64,000 bases of DNA from the IMG/VR virus record IMGVR_UViG_3300045988_121635. The stretch is one strand, 5' to 3'. Positions within the stretch are counted from its first letter, which is position 1; every line of letters begins with the position of its first letter. A program made the position numbers and the translations under genes. The DNA comes from a virus. The notes under the pieces are model-generated. The model was given only the letters and a program-made list of their open reading frames with translations. It had not been told where the DNA came from and did no database searches. Below are positions 2,219 through 50,022 of this stretch, piece after piece.

Positions 2219-2533
2219 ATGTTTACAAAAGAAGAGCGATTATTCATATGGAAAAAGGTATATGAGATGATTGATAGGTTAGAGGATGGGGAATACATAT
2301 GTGTTGCGTTAAGAAATGTAGTGTTTATGTATCTCAAAACACATAAAAATATATATGAGTTTCGTTCAGACGAAATGGTGAGAATATATTTCCCGGAATT
2401 GGAGGAGAAGATAAGTATGGCCACAGAACCAGAGGAAACAAGAACGTTTTATGGGTGGTTTGGTTGTCTTAGTCCAGAAACGAAGGAGGTGAGGCTGAAT
2501 ATTGTGAAAGATATTATAAAAGAATTAGAATAG
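2219..2533 (+). CDS. hypothetical protein
   Basis: ORF 104 aa. Confidence 0.45.
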   Translation: MFTKEERLFIWKKVYEMIDRLEDGEYICVALRNVVFMYLKTHKNIYEFRSDEMVRIYFPELEEKISMATEPEETRTFYGWFGCLSPETKEVRLNIVKDIIKELE

Positions 2534-2579
2534 TATTTTTGTTAATCTATTTTATTCATCAAATTAAGTTTTGGGTTTT

Positions 2580-2609
2580 GGCATGTCGGTTCGTGAGGAT
2601 AGACATGCC
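2580..2609 (+). terminator. hairpin GGCATGTC-(GGTTC-GTGA-GGATA)-GACATGCC with GNRA (GTGA) loop
   Basis: 8-bp stem read directly; followed by U-rich TATTTCTGTAT. Confidence 0.45.
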
Positions 2610-2625
2610 TATTTCTGTATCATAG

Positions 2626-2686
2626 AGGGATGACGCGGCGTGCCGGTGCGTATGTGCCGGTCCTGGTTCGATTCTGGGCATCTCAC
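2626..2686 (+). tRNA. tRNA-like element: T-arm (CCTGG-TTCGATT-CTGGG) + acceptor-like stem (AGGGATG/CATCTCA); D-arm not evident
   Basis: same T-loop and ATCTCACA 3' motif as 1394-1438; 6/7 acceptor pairs; internal CCGG...CCGG stem with 10-nt loop (non-canonical). Confidence 0.3.
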
Positions 2687-2706
2687 AAACAATAAAACAT
2701 AATTAT

Positions 2707-2955
2707 ATGGAAGTAATAACATTCGGTCCGAACATGGATTTGTCTTCTAAAGAAGCAGGGGATGTATTTAGATTAAAATTGTATGGCATAGAGTATGATG
2801 TCAAAGTAGTTGGTGACGACGAAGATCCTCTTATGTTCTGCAAAGATTGTATATTTTTTAACAACTCCGAACGGTGTTCACTCTCAGAATCGCAAGACTG
2901 GTGCTTAAAAAAGCAAGTTGTTTACTGTAAAATAAGACATGATGGGGGAATTTAA
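2707..2955 (+). CDS. hypothetical Cys-rich small protein; paralog of 621..881
   Basis: ORF 82 aa; shared motifs with 621..881. Confidence 0.5.
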   Translation: MEVITFGPNMDLSSKEAGDVFRLKLYGIEYDVKVVGDDEDPLMFCKDCIFFNNSERCSLSESQDWCLKKQVVYCKIRHDGGI

Positions 2956-3130
2956 TGCGAAAGACGCCAATTTCTTATGGCGTCAAATTGGTAGGATTGA
3001 TGGGGTGATAGAAACTCTGAACCGTACCGAAGGAGAGATGCCGGAAATTATAGCCGGAGTACTAAAAAGAATAAGAGACGATATAGATAAGTTTGTAGAT
3101 AATAAAACGAAAGATTATGAGAATATATAA
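2939..3130 (+). CDS. hypothetical protein
   Basis: ORF 63 aa. Confidence 0.35.
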   Translation: MMGEFNAKDANFLWRQIGRIDGVIETLNRTEGEMPEIIAGVLKRIRDDIDKFVDNKTKDYENI

Positions 3131-3347
3131 AAATGATATTATAAAGGCGTCAGCGATAAGCACCGGCGCAGACAGAGGTGTGTTACTGTGTTCAATAACA
3201 GATTCGGGATTCACGTCTATAGCGGGCGTAATATCGGCTGTTAAGGATAAGTTACCAGGCAAAGATCATAAGAAGATGATTTTTGAAATACGGAATGATG
3301 GAAGAAACGAATATGGCAGATATAATAATTGTGGAGGAAAAATATGA
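3117..3347 (+). CDS. hypothetical protein
   Basis: ORF 76 aa. Confidence 0.35.
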   Translation: MRIYKNDIIKASAISTGADRGVLLCSITDSGFTSIAGVISAVKDKLPGKDHKKMIFEIRNDGRNEYGRYNNCGGKI

Positions 3348-3556
3348 AATACAGAGGTCTGTTGCTCCCTATGATATTAGCTGCAATGTGCGGAGATGAT
3401 GCCTTTGTGCTAAATACTAAAAGGGGAAAAGGAATGCAATCTACATATAGAAGAGAAAAGATTGTCAGAACAGAAAAAGAATTTGATATTAATGGCACTA
3501 AAGTAATGGCATACTCAAGAAAGGATGCCATTAAAAGATTAAAACATAAGAAGTAG
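3329..3556 (+). CDS. hypothetical protein
   Basis: ORF 75 aa. Confidence 0.35.
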   Translation: MWRKNMKYRGLLLPMILAAMCGDDAFVLNTKRGKGMQSTYRREKIVRTEKEFDINGTKVMAYSRKDAIKRLKHKK

Positions 3557-3603
3557 AAAACGGATTTTTATGTTAATGTTAGTTTTTTCATTTTTATTGA
3601 AAG

Positions 3604-3641
3604 GAGCGCCGGCCTGTGAAGGTATGCGCTCTTTGTATTTA
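3604..3641 (+). terminator. intrinsic terminator: GAGCGC-(CGGCC-TGTGA-AGGTAT)-GCGCTC hairpin with GNRA-like GTGA loop + TTTGTATTTAT
   Basis: 6-bp GC stem + U-rich tail read directly. Confidence 0.55.
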
Positions 3642-3651
3642 TATAATGCTT

Positions 3652-3770
3652 GACATACTCCCATCGCTAAAGCAAACGGGATTCTTGGATACAAACGTAC
3701 GGAACCCCCGGTTTTACAATCGTTGGAATCACCCGCACTTTCCAACTCGGAAATGCCCTTCCGAGGTCGC
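3652..3770 (-). mobile_element. orphan copy of IS200/IS605-family right end / TnpB-omegaRNA scaffold (no tnpB); ~85-90% identical to 12182-12300 and retains a decayed TnpB C-terminal coding remnant (RKGISELES...)
   Basis: TTGACATACTCCCATCGCTAAAGCAAA(C/T)GGGATTCTTGGATACAAACG... aligned by eye with the 3' end of the tnpB element at 12182; translation of minus strand gives RKGISELESAGDSND vs TnpB RKGISELESKSNSSDSN. Confidence 0.75.
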
Positions 3771-3856
3771 AAGACAGGGCAAATATAATGTTTAATTATC
3801 ATCTGACACATAAATGGGATCAGTATTACCATTAAATAACATAAAACAATAATAAT

Positions 3857-4111
3857 ATGACAGATAATAACATAGACGTGAATATCGTACCTGTAAAGAA
3901 TGGCGCGAAACGTGTTGTGGTATCATATTACCATTATTCACGCAAGGACAAAAATCACATGAGTTCCCAAACGGATTACGTGTGGGAAACAAAGAATGAA
4001 GAAATGTTTAAATACTTTGAGGCCAGGAGGACAAAAGTATTTTATAGTCAGATTCGTGCCATGTGTAGATTCTATGGCAAGAAAAATGTACGTAAATACA
4101 AAAAGCTATGA
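3857..4111 (+). CDS. hypothetical protein
   Basis: ORF 84 aa; ATGA overlap with next. Confidence 0.45.
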   Translation: MTDNNIDVNIVPVKNGAKRVVVSYYHYSRKDKNHMSSQTDYVWETKNEEMFKYFEARRTKVFYSQIRAMCRFYGKKNVRKYKKL

Positions 4112-8937: not shown

Positions 8938-9693
8938 ATGAAGCTATTATACTTAGTGGAGTCGGGAGAATCGAAGTTTCTTGTCTTCGACGAAATGCCT
9001 GATAAAATTAGCACAAAGTACGGAGATGATACCATTATTGGAAGGATAGGAGGTATATTCTATGATTTCTTTGCAAAGAGAAATGAGAGAAGAGAAGCTT
9101 TCGGAGGTAGAAAGTTCGATATCGTACTTGACAACGGAGAGATAGAGAAGTGTGAAGGGCAATGGTGGGATGCGGTGACAGACAGAGCAAGAGAAGAATT
9201 GGAAAAAGAGGGAAATCCATTTTCCAAAATGATGTTGATCGGTGTTTCTTCAGTAGATAGATTATCGGATTGTTATGTGTATTATGGGTTATGGGCATCC
9301 GAAAGTAAGATTGAAGAAATGATAGCTGACTACAAAGGTCATATATATGAGTATTACGAATTTAAGGAAGAGGTTATTAATAAGATAAATGAGACCCGTA
9401 GAAAATCATATATTCAATCTTGGAAAGAACAGATAATACGGTCTGGGATGAGGCAGAAAAGAAAAGACGTATTTGAATCACCGGATGGATTGTATATTGA
9501 GATGGTATATGAGAACAAAGCGTTTGTGCCATATAGACCTATAAAAGAAACCCAGGATTTACCTATAGATGCAAAGTACATACCGCTTCTTACAAGGATA
9601 TTTGGAAAGAACATACTTGCGGAGATAGGAGGGGATAAGATATTTATAACTACTGGGAAATATGCTGTGAATTTTTGGTGCTGGAAAAAGTAA
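8938..9693 (+). CDS. hypothetical protein
   Basis: ORF 251 aa. Confidence 0.55.
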   Translation: MKLLYLVESGESKFLVFDEMPDKISTKYGDDTIIGRIGGIFYDFFAKRNERREAFGGRKFDIVLDNGEIEKCEGQWWDAVTDRAREELEKEGNPFSKMMLIGVSSVDRLSDCYVYYGLWASESKIEEMIADYKGHIYEYYEFKEEVINKINETRRKSYIQSWKEQIIRSGMRQKRKDVFESPDGLYIEMVYENKAFVPYRPIKETQDLPIDAKYIPLLTRIFGKNILAEIGGDKIFITTGKYAVNFWCWKK

Positions 9694-11348: not shown

Positions 11349-11762
11349 ATGGGATATATATGTACAAGATGTGGTGGAACAAAGGTTGCTTGTGAAGCCA
11401 TAGTAAATCCGAATACCAGAGAAATAATAGATTATTTTGATGAATCTTTCGCGCATGCTATTTGCGGGGATTGTGAAAACGAGGTAATAATATCTAACGT
11501 TGAAGAAGTCAAACATGAAATTGATTTAAGATTTCATGAATTTGTAGAAAGAACAGGTAAGGAGCCTGAATACGTAGAATGTCAGATTGTATGGAAGGAG
11601 ACAGGAGACGATAAAAGAGCGACAATCAAACTATCGCTGAGTATCAACGATGATGATAATGATGATGTTTTTTATTATTGTAATGGGATAGAATCATTTA
11701 AGCAACTTGCTGAATACGGGATGGGAGAATTTATCGTAACATTTTGTTGGAGTTTCTTTTAA
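11349..11762 (+). CDS. hypothetical Zn-ribbon protein (CxxC...CxxC)
   Basis: ORF 137 aa. Confidence 0.45.
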   Translation: MGYICTRCGGTKVACEAIVNPNTREIIDYFDESFAHAICGDCENEVIISNVEEVKHEIDLRFHEFVERTGKEPEYVECQIVWKETGDDKRATIKLSLSINDDDNDDVFYYCNGIESFKQLAEYGMGEFIVTFCWSFF

Positions 11763-12202
11763 GAAATACATTCAGTTATCATTTTTTAATAACATATCTT
11801 ATGAAAACACAAGAAGAATATGCCCATGAAATTGACGAAATCGTTCGCCGGGATGTAGAGAGCTGCCAGAGTGACTGGTTTATAATCGACAAGGAGATAT
11901 TTATGCAGCCAGAGAATAAGAACAAGGCATTTATTTTGGGAACAAGAAAGACCGGGTGCGATATGATCGTACTTGGAGGTACTAATTGCAGTGGATCCAA
12001 TATGGATTGGCTTTTCGGTTGCCTTGGCAATGAAAACTTCTATGTATGCCAGCCAGTATCTTTCTATAAATCACAACAAGAAATCCAGAAAGTAAATCCG
12101 CTTTATGCTTTCAAGGTGGCCACTGCTTATTTTAGAGAACAAGGGAAGGTTCCGGTATTTGAAGATAATAACTGTAGATTATTGACATACTCCCATCGCT
12201 AA
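11744..12202 (+). CDS. hypothetical protein whose last 7 codons (LLTYSHR*) are supplied by the IS right end, so its 3' end is altered by the tnpB insertion
   Basis: stop codon TAA lies inside TTGACATACTCCCATCGCTAA IS terminus. Confidence 0.45.
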   Translation: MLEFLLRNTFSYHFLITYLMKTQEEYAHEIDEIVRRDVESCQSDWFIIDKEIFMQPENKNKAFILGTRKTGCDMIVLGGTNCSGSNMDWLFGCLGNENFYVCQPVSFYKSQQEIQKVNPLYAFKVATAYFREQGKVPVFEDNNCRLLTYSHR

Positions 12203-12380
12203 AGCAAATGGGATTCTTGGATACAAACGCAAGAAACCCCGATGTTGCTATCGCTGGAATTACTCTTGCTCTCCAATTCGGAAATGCCCTTCCGAAGTAT
12301 ATTACGGGCTGCAAGAATATCACGGTCGTTAATTGCGCCGCACGCTGGGCACACCCACGTGCGGTCGCGTAACGACAGTC
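12182..12380 (-). ncRNA. predicted omegaRNA (reRNA) scaffold overlapping tnpB 3' end and IS right end; guide would continue into flank below 12182 (minus strand reads ...GGGAGUAUGUCAA|UAAUCUACAGUU...)
   Basis: established TnpB architecture; terminal hairpin TCCCAT-C-GC-TAAA-GC-AA-ATGGGA at 12190-12212 seen; extent inferred. Confidence 0.5.
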
Positions 12381-13374
12381 CTTTATTAATGCAGCCACAT
12401 TCACAAGTTTTGGAAGAAGGATACCATTTGTCAATCTTGTGTATCGTTACTCCATATTTTGAAGCAACATACGTAAGTTTATCAATAAAAGAAGAATGAC
12501 TGAGATCGGAAACTTTCTTTCCCCACAAACGTTTCATTCCTTCAATGCTTAGATCTTCAATGAAAATATAATCATATTGTTTGCATAACTGATGAGCTAA
12601 TTTCCATTGAAAATCTGATCGAAGATCGTTTATTTTACGATACGTTTGTTGAAGTTCAAACAGTTTCCTTCTTCTATTATTGGATCCTTTCTTTGCATTA
12701 GAAAGCCGTTTGTTTAGTTTTCTAATCTTGTTTTGATATTGTTTGAAGAATAGAGGAGAATCAATTTTGCTACCATCGCTTTTAGTTAAATAAGTTTTTA
12801 GTCCAAAATCCAATCCTATAGATGCACCATCATGTGTCTTTCTATAAGAGCTTATAGGATTATGATCTGTAACTACAATCAAACTAAAACGTGAACAGGT
12901 TTCTCTAACTATTCTAATTTGTTTAACATTACCTTCGTAGCCTCTACTGTATGAGAATCTAAATCGTTTGTTTCCTTTGTTAATTGTTAGACAATTCCCA
13001 TTTAGGGTAAACCCACCTTGTTTGAAAACAAAAGAGTTGAATTTCTCCGGTGATTTAAACTTAGGAGGTCGTTTAGCTAACTTCTTAAAGAAACGATTAT
13101 AAGATTCATCAAGACGTTCAAGTATTTCTTGTGTTGTTTGAGAATGAAGAAGATTTCTTTTAATTCTTTTGGCAAAATACTTCTTCATTTTGCCAACTGA
13201 GATATATTTCCCAAACAGTTTGTGATACCTACGTTGTAGAGCTAACGCATGATTCCATACAAAACAACATTCACGAAGCATCTTGTCAAGATACTTCGTT
13301 TTCCTGGAATGGTATATGTTGTATTTGTATGAAATCATTTTTTTTATCTGTAATTTTGATTCAAAATTAATCAA
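12199..13374 (-). CDS. tnpB: TnpB (OrfB) RNA-guided endonuclease of IS200/IS605 family: RuvC-like motifs (IGLDFG, IFIEDLS, NDRDILAARNI) and CxxC...CPACG zinc finger
   Basis: 391-aa ORF; motif order D...E...Zn-finger...D typical of TnpB/Cas12 ancestors. Confidence 0.9.
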   Translation of the reverse strand: MINFESKLQIKKMISYKYNIYHSRKTKYLDKMLRECCFVWNHALALQRRYHKLFGKYISVGKMKKYFAKRIKRNLLHSQTTQEILERLDESYNRFFKKLAKRPPKFKSPEKFNSFVFKQGGFTLNGNCLTINKGNKRFRFSYSRGYEGNVKQIRIVRETCSRFSLIVVTDHNPISSYRKTHDGASIGLDFGLKTYLTKSDGSKIDSPLFFKQYQNKIRKLNKRLSNAKKGSNNRRRKLFELQQTYRKINDLRSDFQWKLAHQLCKQYDYIFIEDLSIEGMKRLWGKKVSDLSHSSFIDKLTYVASKYGVTIHKIDKWYPSSKTCECGCINKGLSLRDRTWVCPACGAINDRDILAARNILRKGISELESKSNSSDSNIGVSCVCIQESHLL

Positions 13375-13432
13375 ACCAATTCATCTACCTACTAAAGTAT
13401 GGTGGTTTTGTTGGTTAAATAATCATAAAACT

Positions 13433-13840
13433 ATGAGCATAAAAGTAATAAGATACAGGTTGCCCTCTTATTGGGCTTGTCCGTTAATCAATGATGATTA
13501 CACTGGATTAACGGATGAAGAATGTGAGGAAATCCATAAAATACAAGATATGGAAAGATTGAATTTTGAAACATTGTTTCGTATCGTAAGATGGGATTAC
13601 AACCGTTGCTTTAAGGATGAATCATTGGACAAGGATTTGTTCGTAGAAAAATACGGACGGGTAATGGGTGAACATTATTATAACAAGTTTGTCCATGAAT
13701 TTGACGGAAATATTCTGAAGATGGTTGGTTACTTCAGAGGTTCCGAAAAAGAGGGGCAAGTCTTCTGCGATATGATAACCGAACGTATTGAAAAATACGA
13801 AAAGAGAATGTCATATGATAAAGGTAAGTTAAACAATTAA
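13433..13840 (+). CDS. hypothetical protein (start at ATG 13433; ORF track start 13283 lies inside tnpB)
   Basis: ORF; MSIKVIRYRL... Confidence 0.5.
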   Translation: MSIKVIRYRLPSYWACPLINDDYTGLTDEECEEIHKIQDMERLNFETLFRIVRWDYNRCFKDESLDKDLFVEKYGRVMGEHYYNKFVHEFDGNILKMVGYFRGSEKEGQVFCDMITERIEKYEKRMSYDKGKLNN

Positions 13841-43575: not shown

Positions 43576-46500
43576 CTATTTGTAGCTTGTATCCTCATCA
43601 CCTTCCGAATCAGGAGTGGCGCCGATGAAGAACATCATTGACTTGTTGTTCGTCTGCTGCCACCAATTATAAGCGCGCGCTACGTCTTCCGGCGTCTTGA
43701 TATTATACCATTGTTTGATAAACGTCTGTTTGGCGAGTTGCCTAAATAACTTAAACTCTCCTTTGTATGTGCCGGATGTTACTTTATCAAGTGAATAATT
43801 CCTAAGATCGGTAAGATCCTTCAGTTTCCGCCCCATAACAAACGGATCGTTAATGATATCTACCACGTTAAGCTCCATAATAAACGGCATCTGTGAAGCT
43901 ATTTCGTTTATGGTTCTGAATCCGACATAGGATCCGAATTGAGTAAGCCAACTTTCTTCGTTTTCATCATCATCACGCCATCCGGCAAGAAGCATAGATA
44001 CGGCCTGCATGATAAGGAACGTGCCGGCATAGACACTGAGACGTTTGAGATTGGTTTTTTCTACCTCATTCATATTGTCTTTATTTTCATTCCAGGCATC
44101 TATGATGTTTTTCATACCAGACTCGGAAGCCAGGCTAAATGTTTTGGCTATCATATTCTTTAACGTAATTGACAACCCTTCCTCTTCTTGCATTGTCTGG
44201 AAATTGAAGCCACGTCTTTTCCACAGACGTTGAGCCGCCAGCACCAACCATCCTCGGTGGGCGGTCATGAACCTGGCTATCCAGTTGCGCGATGCAGCAG
44301 TTCGGTTTTCTTCATTCAAAGATCCGTTACATATCTGCGACAAGCTACGGACTTGATTCCTGGTTATAGCCATCTGGGTTTCAACTTCCTCAACAGTAAC
44401 ACCTGATCCGGGCTTTACAACCACCTTCCCATCCACGACGTCTACCATACTCCATAAAGTACGATCTTTTAATGCGTTCCATTCTCTTTTTATGGTACTC
44501 TGTTCTTTATTGCGTTCTTTTTCCATCTTGAAATCTTGGAGCGTGTAGAACCGGCCTTTGTAATAACGAACATTGTCCATAGTAGCAATCATAACCTGCG
44601 GATCAAGAGGGTAGTTCAGGATTTCCATAAAAGCATACATAGGCGAACGCATTAAGGTCCTGGCCGCTCTATTGTATCCGGCACCATACATACGATTTCG
44701 GATATTGAATATCCCCATTCTCTCACCTATGACATATAATTTACTTTTCCTATCTATGTCTCCGGTTTCTGCTATACAAGATGGAGCAAGGCGTGAAAAT
44801 TCAGCCGATGCGTATTTAAGGGAGTCTTTGCTTATATACTGTCCTACGGCAGATTCCATGATGAGGTTGATATGACCTGTTAAGGCGCCGGTAGCTGCCA
44901 CAAACGGAGACAGTGCCAAGTTCATGACCGACATAAATCTTTCAACAGCCATCATAATTCTTGTAAGGTCTACCGTATATCCTCCGATGTTCACCGTAAG
45001 TCTTTTGGTGTTCATCCTAATGCCATAATAATGATCGTTGAAGAAGTCTCTGAACATCTGATATGCTTGGGTTGCTTCAGCCTTCTTACCGCCTTCAAAT
45101 TGCTTGTTCAGTAACATCTGTTCCAGTCCTTGAGCGAGCTCTATAGACTTCTGCTTTTCGTTGTATAACGATGACTGCATCATAAGCATCGAATAAGAGT
45201 AGCCAAAATCGTGAGATACATCATCTTGGTTCTCCAACTCATATATGTAGTATTTAGGTATAGACCTAAGTCTGTCTTCCGGGTCATACACTTCTCCTTG
45301 CCTGGTCTTACCATATAGAGAATCGTCTACTCTGTCCAGGCACAGATCTGATACAAAATTACGAACCGTATTTTTGAAGTTAATACCCAATCCTTCTATA
45401 CGTTCTATGTCTTGTTTTGATATCTGTGGAATAGCATACAGGTTCGGGCTCTGCTCTTTGTATAGATCAAGGGATTGTCTTTTTATTTCCTTGAGTTTTT
45501 GAATCATATTCCACTGCTCTACATTTTTAGTAGCAACCTCATTACCGTCAACATCATACTTGATGCCAAAGTCATTGAAATACGATTCATCACGATACAG
45601 GCTTTTCTTAGGCATTCGATGACCATACCCATGATCTTTTACATAATCAGGATTACGGCCGCTATTTTCGGCTTCAGATTCAGCCACCCATGCCCTTGCA
45701 GGATCGAAAGAAAGGTACGATATATCCATGCCATAATCTTGGGTGGATGTACCGTTTTGTACGTCCTTAACCATCTGCGCCACATCTATCTCACCTCGAC
45801 CGATTTTGTCGATCATAGCCGCATATCCAGTAGGCGCCATGCGTTTATAGTACGAAAAGACCTGGCTCCTGGCAAATTCATTAACAATAGCATTGGCCTC
45901 TTCTATGCCCGCTTTTATGTCAGCTTCTATACCCTCTTCTCTTGTATTATTTAAAAACAAGCTGGCCATCTTAGCATTAACAGCATTCCTAAAATCTCTA
46001 CCGTCTAATTCTTTGCTTATACCAAGCTTTTCTGACAGGTAGTTGGTTTCAGATACGGTAAACAGATATCGGTTATCAGCAGCCTTAAACAGCTTATCCC
46101 TTAAAGCCTGAATCCTTTTTGCTTTCTTCGCCGTAGTATGACGTTGTACGAACTTCCATTCCACTTCCTTGGAGTCAGCAAGAGCATTTAAATAAGACTG
46201 ATTTACTTCGTTTTCAGCCTTATTGCTTTTAGTAAGGTACTTATCAATATCTTCAAGACCCACCATCTTAGCATAATCTATCAAAATAGCGTAATCGGCT
46301 TCAATAGCTTCAGATGCGGCCCTAAAAGCATCTCTTTCGGATGAGGTAAATGTTGCTTCGTTAATTTCTCCGATATCAGCCACATCGCGATTGTTTCCGA
46401 TTATTTCCTTGATAATAGCCTTATTTTTTTCTATATCTTTCACAATAGAATCCACGTCAGTCGCATCTCTATCGCTTGTCGTAGAACTAATGATATCATG

Positions 46501-49500
46501 CGCCATTTTGAGATACGAAGCCTTGTTATTTGATTCGGTGCGCGCTGACTGTTCCGATTCTATATCATTCCAAAACCGATCGTTGAATGACAGGTGACCA
46601 CCCAACATAAGCGTTCTCAATGCAGCTTCCCCTCCTGATTCGCTCTGAATCGCTCTCAATTTTTGCAAAAACGATTCTGATACGGCATTAGTAACATTAT
46701 TTGATTCCTTTCTCCAAACTTCATTTATAGCTTGTATTTCTTTGGCCATCTTAAGTTGGTCGCCGGTTTTTTCCACTCTCCTGGTTCCTACATATATGTA
46801 TTCTGAAGCTGCTTCTTTACGTTGTTTACGAAGCAGTCCTTCTTCTTCGTAATTGCTGCTTTTAAAATAGGCAACTTCATCAAAATTACCACCGCTATCA
46901 ATAAAAGGCTGCCTCAGTATCCGTTTTTGCCTGGATAGAGCATTAAGGTATTCTTTGGTTGTTTGAGAAACTGGATGCCCTAATTCTTCTTCAGCCTTTT
47001 TGTATATGGATTCCATTCTTGTGGCATAACTTTCACTAAATTCCAGTTCCGAATTTTCAGCATCCCACTTTTCCATCTGTTCCGTATAGATCTTTTCCTG
47101 CTCGATGGTAAAAATATCGGTATTAACCCTATCAGACGATGGTTTGAATTTAGCGTTTTCAGTAACCGTATTTCCATCCTTGTCAACTACTTCTCTTTTA
47201 AATACGTAATTACGGTTATTGTCAACCACATCACCAATTTCTTCTTCTGATATCTCTATGTTCATGGCAGTCGCAAACGCTCGCATCTGCGCCAGCTTCT
47301 TATTACGATCGTATTTAGCCATATCAAGAGCACTACGAAGGTAATTAGAAGTTTTGCCGTCTACTTTCTGAAGCAGTTTTTCAAATTCAGATTTGTTAAA
47401 ACCATGCTTTTTCGCATATGCCAGGAAATCGGATATGGCGGGCTGGGCATTCACCATCGCATTGTAATTGTCTTTGGCAATCATAGCTCCAAGAGCGTTA
47501 TTGAACGGACTGGAAGAATGCTCTAATATACCAAACCACCTACTTATCCAAGAAACATCGTGTTGAACCTTGTCGAAAAATTCTTTTACTCTCTTTACCT
47601 TATCTGCCGGCACATGAAGTTCGTTCATTAACTTATCAAGCAACGTACTTTCATCAAGGTCTTGTACTGATTTAATATCAGACTGAATACCATTGATGTC
47701 GGCAATGACGGTGTTGATCCTATTTGTATAATCCTGCTTTTCACGTTCATCAAATTCGGTACTTCTGTTACGGATATATCCTCGAAGATCGTTCATGATC
47801 GGAAGAACCTGATTGTTGATAATATCTACGTTCTTTCGATCATTGGTGTTGAAGTGAAGCTTGCCGTCTTTGGTATCACCATGAAGGATGGTGTTCACCA
47901 CATTGCTTAAGTATCTGACCTGAGCTTCGGCTGTGGAGATCATGCTGTTCATGGCAGCCGCCATCTCATTCTTGTCTATTTCGGTCTCTACCTTATTTAT
48001 CTTATCTTCTATGGTCTTAAGCTGCGCAAGGGTCATAGACGTAGTTACAGCCCTATCAGAGCTTATCTGACGTAAGTCTCTTAATGTTTTTCTTAGTGAT
48101 CTGATCTTAGACTCAAGAAACTTGTTCTTGTTCATAGAAGAAAGGGAGTATAATGTAAAGTCATTATCCTTTAACAGAGAGGTGTCAAATCCTTTATCTA
48201 TGTCAGTAATGGCAAGATCACGAATGTTTTTAATAACGTTATTCAAATCTTGTCTTTGGGTTGATAAAGCTGATTTAAGCCAGCTTACGATTCCAGAGAA
48301 AAGCTGCCGGACGCGCCCCAGGAAGGAGGTGGGCTCTACCGGCGCCTGTGCTGTGCCGGCCTGCATCTCCCTGGCGAGGATCTTTCCAAGAATTTCTCTC
48401 CTAACAGCATTATCAAGCTCAGCTCCTTCATACGCTTTACCGTATGTATTATAATACTGACCTGCATACTGGTTCCACTCTTCCGTACCTTCTACATCTT
48501 GCAGAACAGCCTCAACAGCATTCTGATCTCTGTATGCCTCTACAAGAAAGTGGGCTGTTTCTTCTACTAAATCAGATAAAGTAGCATCTTCACCAACTGC
48601 TATTACGTTATTAGCAATATCCGCCAATGCCTTAGCAGAAGGTTCGTGCCCGTATTTGGTTTGGTACTTCTCTATATAGTCGGTCATACCTATGACACTA
48701 ACGCCAAGCGTTTTCAGTATCTCGACAATAGAATTTCGTTGGTCACGTTCCTGCCTGCTATAATCTGATACGATCTTAGCTTTAGTATCAGCATAAAGAT
48801 CGTTATCTTCTAATATGAATGAAACTACAAGCGCATCAAAATGATCGTACTTGGCGTCCAATTCATTGTATCTTCCTGACTTAAGATCGTTCTTTATCTG
48901 TTCCCTACTAATCCTTTCCGTTCCTCCGGTGGCGAGTCTCATAGTTACCTTACTGTTATCCAACGAGCTTATGGTTATCATACCTTGGTCGTTCATGGAA
49001 ACATCGGAACCAAAATGATTACGGAGCTCGGTGTATGATAAGGCTGAATTGAAAAGTCTAATTTGTCCTGTATGACCTTCTCCTGTAAGATAATAGCTTC
49101 TTGTTTCAGGATCGAATATCTTAGATCCGGACAAAAGACCTTTCTTTATAAGGTAGTTAATTATACCACCTTTTGTTGATAAAGAAGTAGAAGCAGAAGC
49201 GGTCATGACCGGTATAAAAGATTTGGGATTATTAAGAACATACTTTCCAGCTTTGTAAGTAATGTCTGCCACGCCATCCACGGTAGATTCTTGAACGGTG
49301 CCTGATAAGAACCCTATTCTGATATCATTCCCGCCAGAGCGAAGAGCTTCTCCGTAATCTTCAAATAATTGACTACGATCGTTCATGAAAAACAAACGAG
49401 GCTCTCCAGTCTGATACGTTACACCCACAGGATTAGAATCTGTTTCTGGTAGCTCTTCTGGGCTAAATATCTTAAGACCGTCTTTTATAACCATATAATT

Positions 49501-50022
49501 AACACCCTTATCCTGTACCACAGATACGGGAGTGAAGTCCGAAAATATAGCATCTTGTAAATACTGCCCGGCGTCTATTCCTGGTTCTTCCGGTACGGAA
49601 ATACTTGATGGGATCATAGCATCCACCAACATAATATTATCACCCAGATCTTGGCTATAGAATCCGAAGCCTGATTCTTGAATCCCATAAGTTGCATCTG
49701 ATTTTGATACAAGAACAGGATTACTCATCTTAGAAGCCTTATCCAGCACCCTTTCTCTATAGGCTTCTGGGATAAGATCGATGTTGGATTTTACCTTATT
49801 ATAAGCCTGTTTGTTGATAGGCACTCTCTTTCTCCAGTCGCCAAAAGCCTTTAAGAACTTGTTGGAAAATACGGTTTTAAAAACAGTAGTAGCCCGCTCC
49901 CTGTTCTCCATAAGAGGAACAGATGCTATTTTATCAAACAACATAGACCTGTCCCCTGATCTGGTAGAGACAGAAACAACTTTCTTTTTATTATCTCTTT
50001 TAATAATACACGTTGATACCAT
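43576..50022 (-). CDS. giant 2148-aa protein of unknown function, largely alpha-helical/coiled-coil with hydrophobic segments near C-terminus; candidate virion/ejection-associated protein
   Basis: single uninterrupted 6.4-kb ORF; no enzymatic motif recognised by eye. Confidence 0.7.
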   Translation of the reverse strand: MVSTCIIKRDNKKKVVSVSTRSGDRSMLFDKIASVPLMENRERATTVFKTVFSNKFLKAFGDWRKRVPINKQAYNKVKSNIDLIPEAYRERVLDKASKMSNPVLVSKSDATYGIQESGFGFYSQDLGDNIMLVDAMIPSSISVPEEPGIDAGQYLQDAIFSDFTPVSVVQDKGVNYMVIKDGLKIFSPEELPETDSNPVGVTYQTGEPRLFFMNDRSQLFEDYGEALRSGGNDIRIGFLSGTVQESTVDGVADITYKAGKYVLNNPKSFIPVMTASASTSLSTKGGIINYLIKKGLLSGSKIFDPETRSYYLTGEGHTGQIRLFNSALSYTELRNHFGSDVSMNDQGMITISSLDNSKVTMRLATGGTERISREQIKNDLKSGRYNELDAKYDHFDALVVSFILEDNDLYADTKAKIVSDYSRQERDQRNSIVEILKTLGVSVIGMTDYIEKYQTKYGHEPSAKALADIANNVIAVGEDATLSDLVEETAHFLVEAYRDQNAVEAVLQDVEGTEEWNQYAGQYYNTYGKAYEGAELDNAVRREILGKILAREMQAGTAQAPVEPTSFLGRVRQLFSGIVSWLKSALSTQRQDLNNVIKNIRDLAITDIDKGFDTSLLKDNDFTLYSLSSMNKNKFLESKIRSLRKTLRDLRQISSDRAVTTSMTLAQLKTIEDKINKVETEIDKNEMAAAMNSMISTAEAQVRYLSNVVNTILHGDTKDGKLHFNTNDRKNVDIINNQVLPIMNDLRGYIRNRSTEFDEREKQDYTNRINTVIADINGIQSDIKSVQDLDESTLLDKLMNELHVPADKVKRVKEFFDKVQHDVSWISRWFGILEHSSSPFNNALGAMIAKDNYNAMVNAQPAISDFLAYAKKHGFNKSEFEKLLQKVDGKTSNYLRSALDMAKYDRNKKLAQMRAFATAMNIEISEEEIGDVVDNNRNYVFKREVVDKDGNTVTENAKFKPSSDRVNTDIFTIEQEKIYTEQMEKWDAENSELEFSESYATRMESIYKKAEEELGHPVSQTTKEYLNALSRQKRILRQPFIDSGGNFDEVAYFKSSNYEEEGLLRKQRKEAASEYIYVGTRRVEKTGDQLKMAKEIQAINEVWRKESNNVTNAVSESFLQKLRAIQSESGGEAALRTLMLGGHLSFNDRFWNDIESEQSARTESNNKASYLKMAHDIISSTTSDRDATDVDSIVKDIEKNKAIIKEIIGNNRDVADIGEINEATFTSSERDAFRAASEAIEADYAILIDYAKMVGLEDIDKYLTKSNKAENEVNQSYLNALADSKEVEWKFVQRHTTAKKAKRIQALRDKLFKAADNRYLFTVSETNYLSEKLGISKELDGRDFRNAVNAKMASLFLNNTREEGIEADIKAGIEEANAIVNEFARSQVFSYYKRMAPTGYAAMIDKIGRGEIDVAQMVKDVQNGTSTQDYGMDISYLSFDPARAWVAESEAENSGRNPDYVKDHGYGHRMPKKSLYRDESYFNDFGIKYDVDGNEVATKNVEQWNMIQKLKEIKRQSLDLYKEQSPNLYAIPQISKQDIERIEGLGINFKNTVRNFVSDLCLDRVDDSLYGKTRQGEVYDPEDRLRSIPKYYIYELENQDDVSHDFGYSYSMLMMQSSLYNEKQKSIELAQGLEQMLLNKQFEGGKKAEATQAYQMFRDFFNDHYYGIRMNTKRLTVNIGGYTVDLTRIMMAVERFMSVMNLALSPFVAATGALTGHINLIMESAVGQYISKDSLKYASAEFSRLAPSCIAETGDIDRKSKLYVIGERMGIFNIRNRMYGAGYNRAARTLMRSPMYAFMEILNYPLDPQVMIATMDNVRYYKGRFYTLQDFKMEKERNKEQSTIKREWNALKDRTLWSMVDVVDGKVVVKPGSGVTVEEVETQMAITRNQVRSLSQICNGSLNEENRTAASRNWIARFMTAHRGWLVLAAQRLWKRRGFNFQTMQEEEGLSITLKNMIAKTFSLASESGMKNIIDAWNENKDNMNEVEKTNLKRLSVYAGTFLIMQAVSMLLAGWRDDDENEESWLTQFGSYVGFRTINEIASQMPFIMELNVVDIINDPFVMGRKLKDLTDLRNYSLDKVTSGTYKGEFKLFRQLAKQTFIKQWYNIKTPEDVARAYNWWQQTNNKSMMFFIGATPDSEGDEDTSYK

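Follow-up and report, generated by a model that had tools for sequence, protein, structure and literature searches.

Organization of the locus

The region described here is an intergenic segment of the viral genome IMGVR_UViG_3300045988_121635, of which a stretch of 64,000 nucleotides (the window) was analysed. It carries, on the minus strand, a short insertion related to the right end of an insertion sequence (IS) that encodes the nuclease TnpB and lies 8.5 kb away in the same window. Positions 3650-3840 are in all likelihood the relic of one IS200/IS605-family insertion in an intergenic TTAT site of a human-gut phage lineage, which lost tnpB and kept the right-end core of the guide RNA (omegaRNA). 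The following features were assigned:

3650-3840, minus strand: whole insertion, an IS605-family relic; empty in phage csAssE-Sib and 102 IMG/VR loci, filled in the window and 21 contigs
3650-3770, minus strand: right-end remnant, an omegaRNA-like scaffold of 121 nt; 85% identity to 12182-12298, 128 bits against the family model
3771-3840, minus strand: left part of the insertion, 70 nt; tip at 3831-3840 (G-TTATTTAA), the other 60 nt without significant similarity to the family left end
3841-3844, minus strand: TTAT, the target motif (transposon-associated motif, TAM) beside the left end
3632-3649, minus strand: predicted guide (GCAUUAUAUAAAUACAAA), the flank just 3' of the right end; position by analogy with TnpB omegaRNAs
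3601-3634, both strands: strong hairpin; plus strand -19.4 kcal/mol, z -3.6, then U-rich; minus strand -14.5 kcal/mol, z -3.25

The comparison with relatives defines the relic as a discrete insertion of 191 bp with the element on the minus strand. The closest phage in GenBank, csAssE-Sib (OR575929, human gut, 151 kb; locus L001), runs from the equivalent of window position 3649 directly to 3841 (...TATAATGC/ATAAAACAATAAT..., the slash marking the junction), and at least 102 IMG/VR loci possess the exact empty site ...TATAATGC/ATAAAAC... with nothing in between. A literature search found no paper naming phage csAssE-Sib. One C is common to both junctions, and the register 3649-3839 is equally possible. 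On the strand of the element, the relic reads GTTTTAT/G-TTATTTAATGG ... GGGAGTATGTCAA/GCATTATATAAATAC, and its boundaries are exactly those of the IS (TTAT/G-TTATTTAA ... GTCAA/). According to the empty and filled alleles, it was inserted 3' of TTAT and has neither a target-site duplication nor terminal inverted repeats.

A first-pass annotation of this DNA had proposed a TnpB-less, decayed right end of the IS200/IS605 family resembling the 3' terminus of the tnpB element, and this assignment was borne out. Positions 3650-3767 match 12182-12298 in the same orientation (100 of 118 positions identical, 85%, one gap, E 1.3e-32, blastn), which is the sole non-self match of 3650-3839 in the window, and the left junction TTGACATACTCCC, also noticed before, is found without mismatch at 3650-3662 and 12182-12194. 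The extent given for the feature (3539-3832, with the repeat at 3652-3770) had to be corrected to the 191 bp described above. Its designation as a solo right end was incomplete, for the whole indel with exact IS boundaries includes 70 nt on the left-end side. The possibility raised there that the segment is a conserved intergenic region of IS-less relatives was tested as well; the segment is missing from most relatives and is no such conserved region. An origin by duplication of the resident right end in situ, which the annotation had assumed, was rejected on the basis of the 85% identity to the resident copy and of at most 89% to any sampled TnpB-bearing right end. The central stems of the relic resemble a different subfamily (L018, L011, and L080).

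Of the right end, the relic retains 121 nt, whereas the left end is represented by its tip of about 10 nt only. Agreement with the family left end GATTATTTAA is confined to the outermost ~10 nt of the left part (3771-3840), and homology of the entire 70 nt to that left end was rejected for this reason; the other 60 nt have no significant similarity to the family left end (p = 0.40) and no blast match. The hairpin typical of the left end is absent from the predicted fold of the relic's left part (-2.3 kcal/mol, z +0.47), whereas the left ends of full elements and of a further relic type (group C, see below) fold. The subterminal hairpin of the right end is present in the relic (helix 5, 3681-3659, followed by AGTATGTCAA). 

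The minus-strand open reading frame (ORF) at 3539-3832 encodes RKGISELESAGDSND, the TnpB counterpart being ...RKGISELESKSNSSDSN. A match to the TnpB C-terminus had been noticed in the first-pass annotation. TnpB residues 349-369 and 367-379, in two different frames, are all that tblastn recovers from the relic, so the 97-aa ORF is spurious and the coding trace a frameshifted pseudo-remnant of tnpB. Pfam gave no match for the 97-aa ORF, which should not be called as a gene in annotations. Neither a TnpA (Y1) nor a TnpB gene is encoded by the relic according to Pfam, with just TnpB residues ~349-379 left, and the relic is a derivative of an IS rather than an IS in its own right.

Resident tnpB element and its family

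The related element in the window is a tnpB-only IS with the following parts:

12182-13424, minus strand: resident tnpB-only IS, 1243 bp; empty site in 46 loci, Pfam domains, match to ISDra2 TnpB
12182-12301, minus strand: right end with the omegaRNA region, comprising the tnpB 3' end and the sequence just past the gene
12199-13338, minus strand: tnpB, 379 aa from ATG; upstream TTG at 13374
13339-13424, minus strand: left end; TTAT at 13428-13425

On its own strand, the element reads GTTTTAT/GATTATTTAACC ... GGGAGTATGTCAA/TAATCTACAG. The empty site predicted from these boundaries (CTGTAGATTA/ATAAAACTATGAG) was matched exactly in 46 IMG/VR loci, so that the element is bounded at 12182-13424. 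The encoded protein contains the Pfam domains OrfB_IS605 (4e-18) and Cas12f1-like_TNB (9e-20) and aligns with ISDra2 TnpB (8bf8/8exa; E 3.4e-29), with the RuvC D-E-D residues conserved (LDFG, IEDL, DRDILAARN). The TnpB is apparently catalytically intact, as had been supposed before. No tnpA was found in the window using Pfam.

An 18-mer of the region shared by relic and resident element was detected in at least 120 IMG/VR loci, almost all of them on human-gut viral contigs of 80-160 kb. Most of these loci carry a full TnpB, 57-95% identical to that of the window. In 10 related loci (L011, L024, L062, L064, L065, L071, L080, L084, L104, and L118), a divergently oriented Y1 transposase gene is present (Pfam Y1_Tnp 1.3e-39; 132 aa, HUH motif HVHLF), which identifies the family as a genuine IS200/IS605 family with IS605-like (tnpA plus tnpB) and tnpB-only (IS1341-like) forms. 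The right end of the family always stops at GTCAA, followed by any base. TTAT stands directly before the left end in about 18 independent insertions of the family, and likewise in the resident element; it is thus the target motif and can be taken as the TAM. Representative bacterial genomes were also scanned with the 18-mer; the 24 matches were due to chance and confined to the 18-mer, without similarity to TnpB or the right end, so that a host could not be inferred.

Several copies of the family can share one phage genome. Contig 3300045988_105165 (L066, L083, and L101) has three TnpB copies in one phage genome. In L058 (IMGVR_UViG_3300045988_113417), another IS of the family is inserted, oppositely oriented, at a TTAT that lies some 265 nt right of the relic (flank ~4027-4105). 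In L064, the canonical spacing of Bacteroidota-type promoters (TTTG-N20-TATATTTG) was found upstream of tnpB.

RNA fold of the scaffold

The fold of the right end was derived from an alignment of 55 distinct family right ends, from which a covariance model (R1) was built with both copies of the window included. RNAalifold predicted five helices with 35 pairs, and 98.3% of the pair cells were standard-paired. Compensatory changes were observed in 15 of the 35 pairs, compared to 2-5 in controls slid by 1-3 columns, and none of 500 shuffles reached the observed covariation score. The retention of a structured RNA scaffold, claimed in the first-pass annotation, is supported by this covariation. 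In the relic, the elements of the fold are located as follows:

3765-3746, minus strand: helix 1
3745-3741 with 3689-3685, minus strand: helix 2
3738-3732 with 3703-3697, minus strand: helix 3
3726-3718 with 3713-3705, minus strand: helix 4
3681-3672 with 3667-3659, minus strand: helix 5
ending at 3650, minus strand: 3' tail of the scaffold (...GUAUGUCAA)

Folded alone, the relic adopts the same five helices with a single A/C mismatch in helix 4. Five of the eight pairs of helix 5 show compensatory changes across the family; its loop contains the tnpB stop codon TAG, and the omegaRNA region overlaps the 3' end of tnpB and ends at GTCAA. Searched against the window, model R1 scored 145.7 bits at 12182-12301 and 128.1 bits at 3650-3770; the next match reached 14 bits, so the window contains exactly two copies. 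At the foot of helix 1, the relic has a C-G pair that is unique to it, while U-A is found in all TnpB-bearing copies. The change on the 5' side would turn a conserved Leu of TnpB into Pro, and the C-G pair therefore probably arose after the loss of tnpB, although a single pair is suggestive evidence. No match was obtained with Rfam 15 at gathering thresholds (other matches E > 1), a collection which may hold no model for this type of omegaRNA; a match to HgcC (12 bits, E 1.5) was treated as chance.

The full elements contain an additional hairpin 30-80 nt further upstream, in the zinc-finger coding part of tnpB. It was identified at 12302-12405 and in the homologous parts of 56 loci as a 52-nt hairpin (GTCGTT...AACGAC enclosing CGCAC...GTGCG), is 97% paired, and has four compensatory pairs compared to 0-2 in controls. 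These compensatory changes indicate that, upstream of the core scaffold, an RNA structure is overlaid on the coding sequence. In ISDra2, the functional scaffold of 116 nt is sufficient for cleavage and the 5' region (-231 to -117) is dispensable (PMC10097598). The ~115-121 nt of the relic correspond to the ISDra2 core in size and position, and the extra upstream hairpin of the family sits in the region corresponding to the dispensable 5' part. The compatibility of the relic scaffold with the resident TnpB is assumed because the differences between the two right ends lie mostly in compensated stems.

Since the relic keeps a complete structured guide-RNA core without tnpB, it can be classified as a putative standalone omegaRNA locus with an intact-looking TnpB of the same family 8.5 kb away. 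No effector or transposase gene is adjacent to it, and the TnpB at that distance, whose scaffold is 85% identical, is the single one in the window.

Independent relics without tnpB

TnpB-less relics of the right end arose at least four times at different sites, and each of the groups kept the same scaffold unit:

Group A: the relic site 3650-3840
Group B: L014, L019, and L026
Group C: L038, L045, L050, L081, L087, L090, L098, and L099; left-end promoter region fused directly to the right end
Group D: L114

Every group starts 0-8 nt 5' of helix 1, and this clustering of junctions could reflect selection for an intact RNA. Groups B and C, like group A, occupy a single site each in the sample. 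On contig 3300045988_101995 (L014 and L251), two different TnpB-less relics of groups A and B are present. The first-pass annotation had considered a scaffold without TnpB beside one with TnpB in a phage genome unusual. This assessment did not hold, considering the 21 other contigs with the same relic, the at least three further independent relics in related phages, and the standalone omegaRNAs used in trans that are already published (PMC10691335; 10.1101/2023.03.14.532601).

Some phages carry deletions at this locus. The relic and its surroundings are affected in L294 and L295, both without the equivalent of window 2531-3787, in L296, which lacks 2703-3100 and 3246-3770 and has a truncated version of the conserved gene 3117-3347, and in L058, where 2440-3639 are deleted and one breakpoint falls 10 nt inside the guide flank. 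The breakpoints of all four cluster at or near the relic. The absence of the right end from L294-L296, which do carry the 70-nt part, had suggested that the 70-nt left part might be native phage sequence; this was rejected, as the alignment identifies these loci as secondary deletions of the filled allele.

Predicted guide, target, and flanking motifs

The putative guide, read from 3649 to 3632, is GCATTATATAAATACAAA, and the strong two-strand hairpin follows next. In the empty alleles, TTAT is joined to GCATTATA[T/C]AAATACAAAG, which corresponds to a TAM followed by a target; the target of the guide found in the window would be GCATTATATAAATACA beside TTAT. Among 102 sampled empty alleles, 20 match the guide at 18 of 18 positions and 82 at 17 of 18, with the mismatch at position 9. 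The scan pattern for empty alleles fixed TTAT and guide positions 1-12 (A or G at position 9) and alone cannot reveal escape alleles. Within the window, only one other match to the guide was found, with three mismatches. The filled allele lacks the TAM in front of the guide sequence and would be protected.

The hairpin at 3601-3634 is likely the terminator of the plus-strand genes, and a transcript of the minus strand would likewise stop there, 18 nt beyond the right end. A plus-strand terminator abutting the repeat had been annotated before; the strong hairpin is there, but a simple terminator scan did not flag it. On the opposite side, promoter-like motifs are directed into the scaffold: TATATTTG at 3787-3780 and GTGTCA-16-TATATT at 3809-3782.

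Distribution and diversity in the phage population

The filled allele was found in the window and 21 contigs (21-22 alleles) compared to at least 102 empty alleles, so about one in six related genomes is filled. Junction-specific and left-part-specific scans placed all 21 IMG/VR copies and the window copy at a single site. Filled alleles lie dispersed in a tree of the flanks (600 nt); the filled state requires 15 Fitch changes, while random labels require 18 on average and 15 at minimum. The 600-nt flanks of one filled allele are identical to those of two empty alleles. The nucleotide diversity (pi) among filled alleles was:

Left part of the relic: 0.0%
Right-end part of the relic: 0.55%
100-nt flank on the right-end side: 7.2%
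100-nt flank on the left-end side: 4.4%

A second indel (3357-3545), not of IS origin, about as long and lying 100 nt from the relic, served as control. It is present in 35 of 116 alleles, and its pi is 2.3%, compared to 1.3-6.9% in its own flanks. The diversity of the relic is thus about 10-fold below that of its flanks and about 4-fold below that of the control indel, and yet the relic is found on many flank haplotypes. Despite its wide distribution, it is clearly younger or less variable than the sequence around it. The low diversity on many haplotypes fits RNA-guided homing without proving it; a recent origin combined with ordinary recombination could give the same pattern.

Proposed function and alternative explanations

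Taken as a whole, the data are best explained by a standalone omegaRNA relic that takes part in homing with a TnpB acting in trans, a reading to which we assign a probability of roughly 0.6. Its last part, that the RNA is indeed made and serves as a homing guide, is tentative, and on its own the odds are somewhat against it. Transcription, termination, loading in trans, cleavage, and repair are the steps that we infer. A minus-strand transcript would begin near 3775 at the promoter-like motif, cross the scaffold and about 18 nt of flank, and stop at the hairpin (3631-3604). TnpB from the resident element or from another family copy would bind this RNA in trans. The guide fits the empty allele (TTAT followed by the target) of most related phages, and the complex would cut genomes with an empty site, namely those that have lost the relic or those of a co-infecting relative. 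Recombinational repair from a filled copy would then restore or spread the relic, a process equivalent to transposon homing, while the filled allele would be protected by having the right end instead of TTAT in front of the guide sequence. In its boldest form, the relic would be a minimal RNA-guided gene drive among co-infecting gut phages, consisting of a guide RNA alone and using a borrowed TnpB. We consider this form unlikely; if true, it would explain the near-invariant 191-bp unit on many divergent flank haplotypes.

Several observations weigh against homing by a functional guide RNA. The promoter motifs are bare consensus matches, and the Bacteroidota-type motif TAnnTTTG occurs in the window no more often than expected (64 times, expectation 68), for which reason it was dropped as evidence for transcription and kept as a positional observation. 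The scaffold is just 85% identical to that of the resident element and lacks the upstream hairpin of the full elements. Candidates for a pseudoknot linking the 3' tail with the 5' part of the scaffold, a feature of ISDra2, comprise only 3 bp (GAC:GUC in the relic, GAU:GUC in full elements) and show no covariation, and the pseudoknot partner could not be assigned. The clustering of relic junctions at helix 1 is partly due to ascertainment, the search pattern itself lying in helix 1, and the strong hairpin of helix 1 could be a deletion hotspot; L296 breaks between 3770 and 3771. Relic and control indel occur in all four combinations in a region that recombines heavily, and with free recombination the scatter over haplotypes needs no homing and proves nothing alone. 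Finally, both A and G are found at guide position 9 among the filled alleles, which one would not expect if every homing event co-converted the first 15-20 nt of the flank.

The same recombination supports the view that the relic is a dead, untranscribed IS remnant, carried along passively and low in diversity due to a recent single origin. We hold this explanation to be rather less likely than not. The relic has lost the left-end hairpin and, of tnpB, keeps no more than a frameshifted trace, all 22 copies share one site, indels are found in every combination, the deletion variants L294-L296 remove the right end of the relic, and helix 4 contains an A/C mismatch. An inert remnant does not readily account for five helices that stayed intact despite 11-15% divergence from every sampled TnpB-bearing right end, for the compensatory pair specific to the relic, or for the same unit being kept by four independent relics. 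It is also at odds with a diversity about 10-fold under both flanks and about 4-fold under the control indel on many haplotypes, and with a TAM and target that are intact in all sampled empty alleles.

Movement as a mini-IS with both ends, similar to a palindrome-associated transposable element (PATE) or a miniature inverted-repeat transposable element and mobilized by Y1 TnpA in trans, is very improbable and largely refuted. It would agree with the discrete indel with exact IS boundaries beside TTAT, with the Y1 TnpA (Pfam Y1_Tnp 1.3e-39) encoded by related elements in the same phage collection, and with the description of PATEs with omegaRNAs (10.1101/2023.03.14.532601). However, the left end is down to ~10 nt and without the hairpin required by TnpA, the junction-specific and left-part scans found one site only, and no tnpA was found in the window. 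A role as a decoy or regulatory RNA without cleavage, which would titrate TnpB from the resident guide or act as antisense RNA or insulator between the plus-strand genes, is most improbable. The intact scaffold and the position between two plus-strand genes beside a two-strand hairpin are compatible with it, but nothing speaks specifically in its favor; a decoy would not need the perfect natural target with TAM in relatives, and the catalytic triad of the resident TnpB is intact.

Comparison with known systems

For the standalone omegaRNAs of OMEGA systems (OMEGA standing for obligate mobile element-guided activity), use in trans has been proposed and for some of them shown (Altae-Tran et al., 2021, via PMC10691335; Meers et al., 2023, 10.1101/2023.03.14.532601), and their biological role was stated to be unknown (PMC10691335). 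The relic shares with these loci and with PATEs a scaffold derived from the right end, the absence of an effector or transposase gene beside it, and an effector copy of the same family in the genome. In contrast to them, being mobilized to several sites and, in the case of PATEs, equipped with both palindromic ends, the relic has no left-end hairpin and a single site; moreover, it belongs to a phage genome and shows presence/absence polymorphism within a phage population.

Similar to the omegaRNA of ISDra2 TnpB (Karvelis, 2021, PMC8612924; Nakagawa, 2023, PMC10097598), the RNA region shares sequence with the 3' end of tnpB and extends to the transposon boundary, the adjacent flank would serve as guide, and the TAM is a tetra- or pentanucleotide beside the left end. 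A core of ~116 nt is sufficient there and the 5' extension dispensable. The two differ in that there is no sequence similarity and no Rfam family, in the TAM (TTAT instead of TTGAT), and in that the properties given here were read from the sequence alone.

The homing of TnpB elements into co-infecting phages has been considered as a possibility in a 2026 review and is so far a proposal (PMC13565253). As in the homing of TnpB elements with their own nuclease, the guide fits a scarless empty site joined to the TAM, the filled site would be protected, and a near-identical element is found on diverse flanks, as homing would give. Unlike those elements, which are excisable by TnpA, the relic would need a nuclease from elsewhere and is unlikely to be excised by TnpA, and its homing is deduced from sequence. 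A further parallel is provided by the free-standing homing endonucleases of T4-like phages and the trans-homing of defunct elements (mobE, I-TevIII; PMC2790892), where, as would be the case here, a defective element could spread by means of a nuclease encoded elsewhere in the genome; in those phages a protein recognizes the site, and in the present case an RNA guide taken from the flank would do so.

Guide RNAs without a nuclease that are used in trans are known, and such relics are recurrent in this phage lineage. What the locus adds is that it segregates as a polymorphism among phages of one population and has a natural target at hand. The locus offers a natural test case, with a guide-only relic, a nuclease elsewhere in the genome, and an intact TAM with target in more than 100 sampled relatives; both alleles segregate in one phage population, so that biased inheritance could be measured directly. 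For a compact TnpB of 379 aa, the analysis also provides a predicted TAM (TTAT), exact boundaries, and a covariation-supported fold of ~115 nt from sequence alone.

Neighboring genes and further observations

The control indel 3357-3545 (189 nt) holds a small ORF (~3345-3556, ~70 aa) and is missing from csAssE-Sib and 81 of 116 related alleles. In L296 (~9330-9395, in the plus orientation of the window), a tRNA T-arm-like sequence (GGTTCGATTCTGGGCA) is located immediately to the left of the gene 3117 homologue.

The insertion of the resident element (12182-13424) rewrote the C-terminus of the plus-strand gene 11744-12202. In genomes with the empty site, the product ends with ...NCRLIKL* and the gene has an ATGA overlap with the next gene; in the window, it ends with ...NCRLLTYSHR*, with the stop codon inside the right end of the IS. 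In csAssE-Sib (L002, 2108-2436, corresponding to window 12186-13438), the place of the resident IS is taken by a hypothetical gene of 101 aa. Neither the IS nor the 101-aa gene is found at the junction in the 46 loci with the exact empty site, which results in three allelic states at this position.

Other Pfam matches in the window include a Tad2-like protein (Thoeris anti-defence), Bro-N/ANT, Dam and C5 methylases, DnaB, and a PD-(D/E)XK nuclease. The window also encodes an N-terminal domain of a dATP/dGTP diphosphohydrolase and contains an ORF of 2147 aa at 43579-50022.

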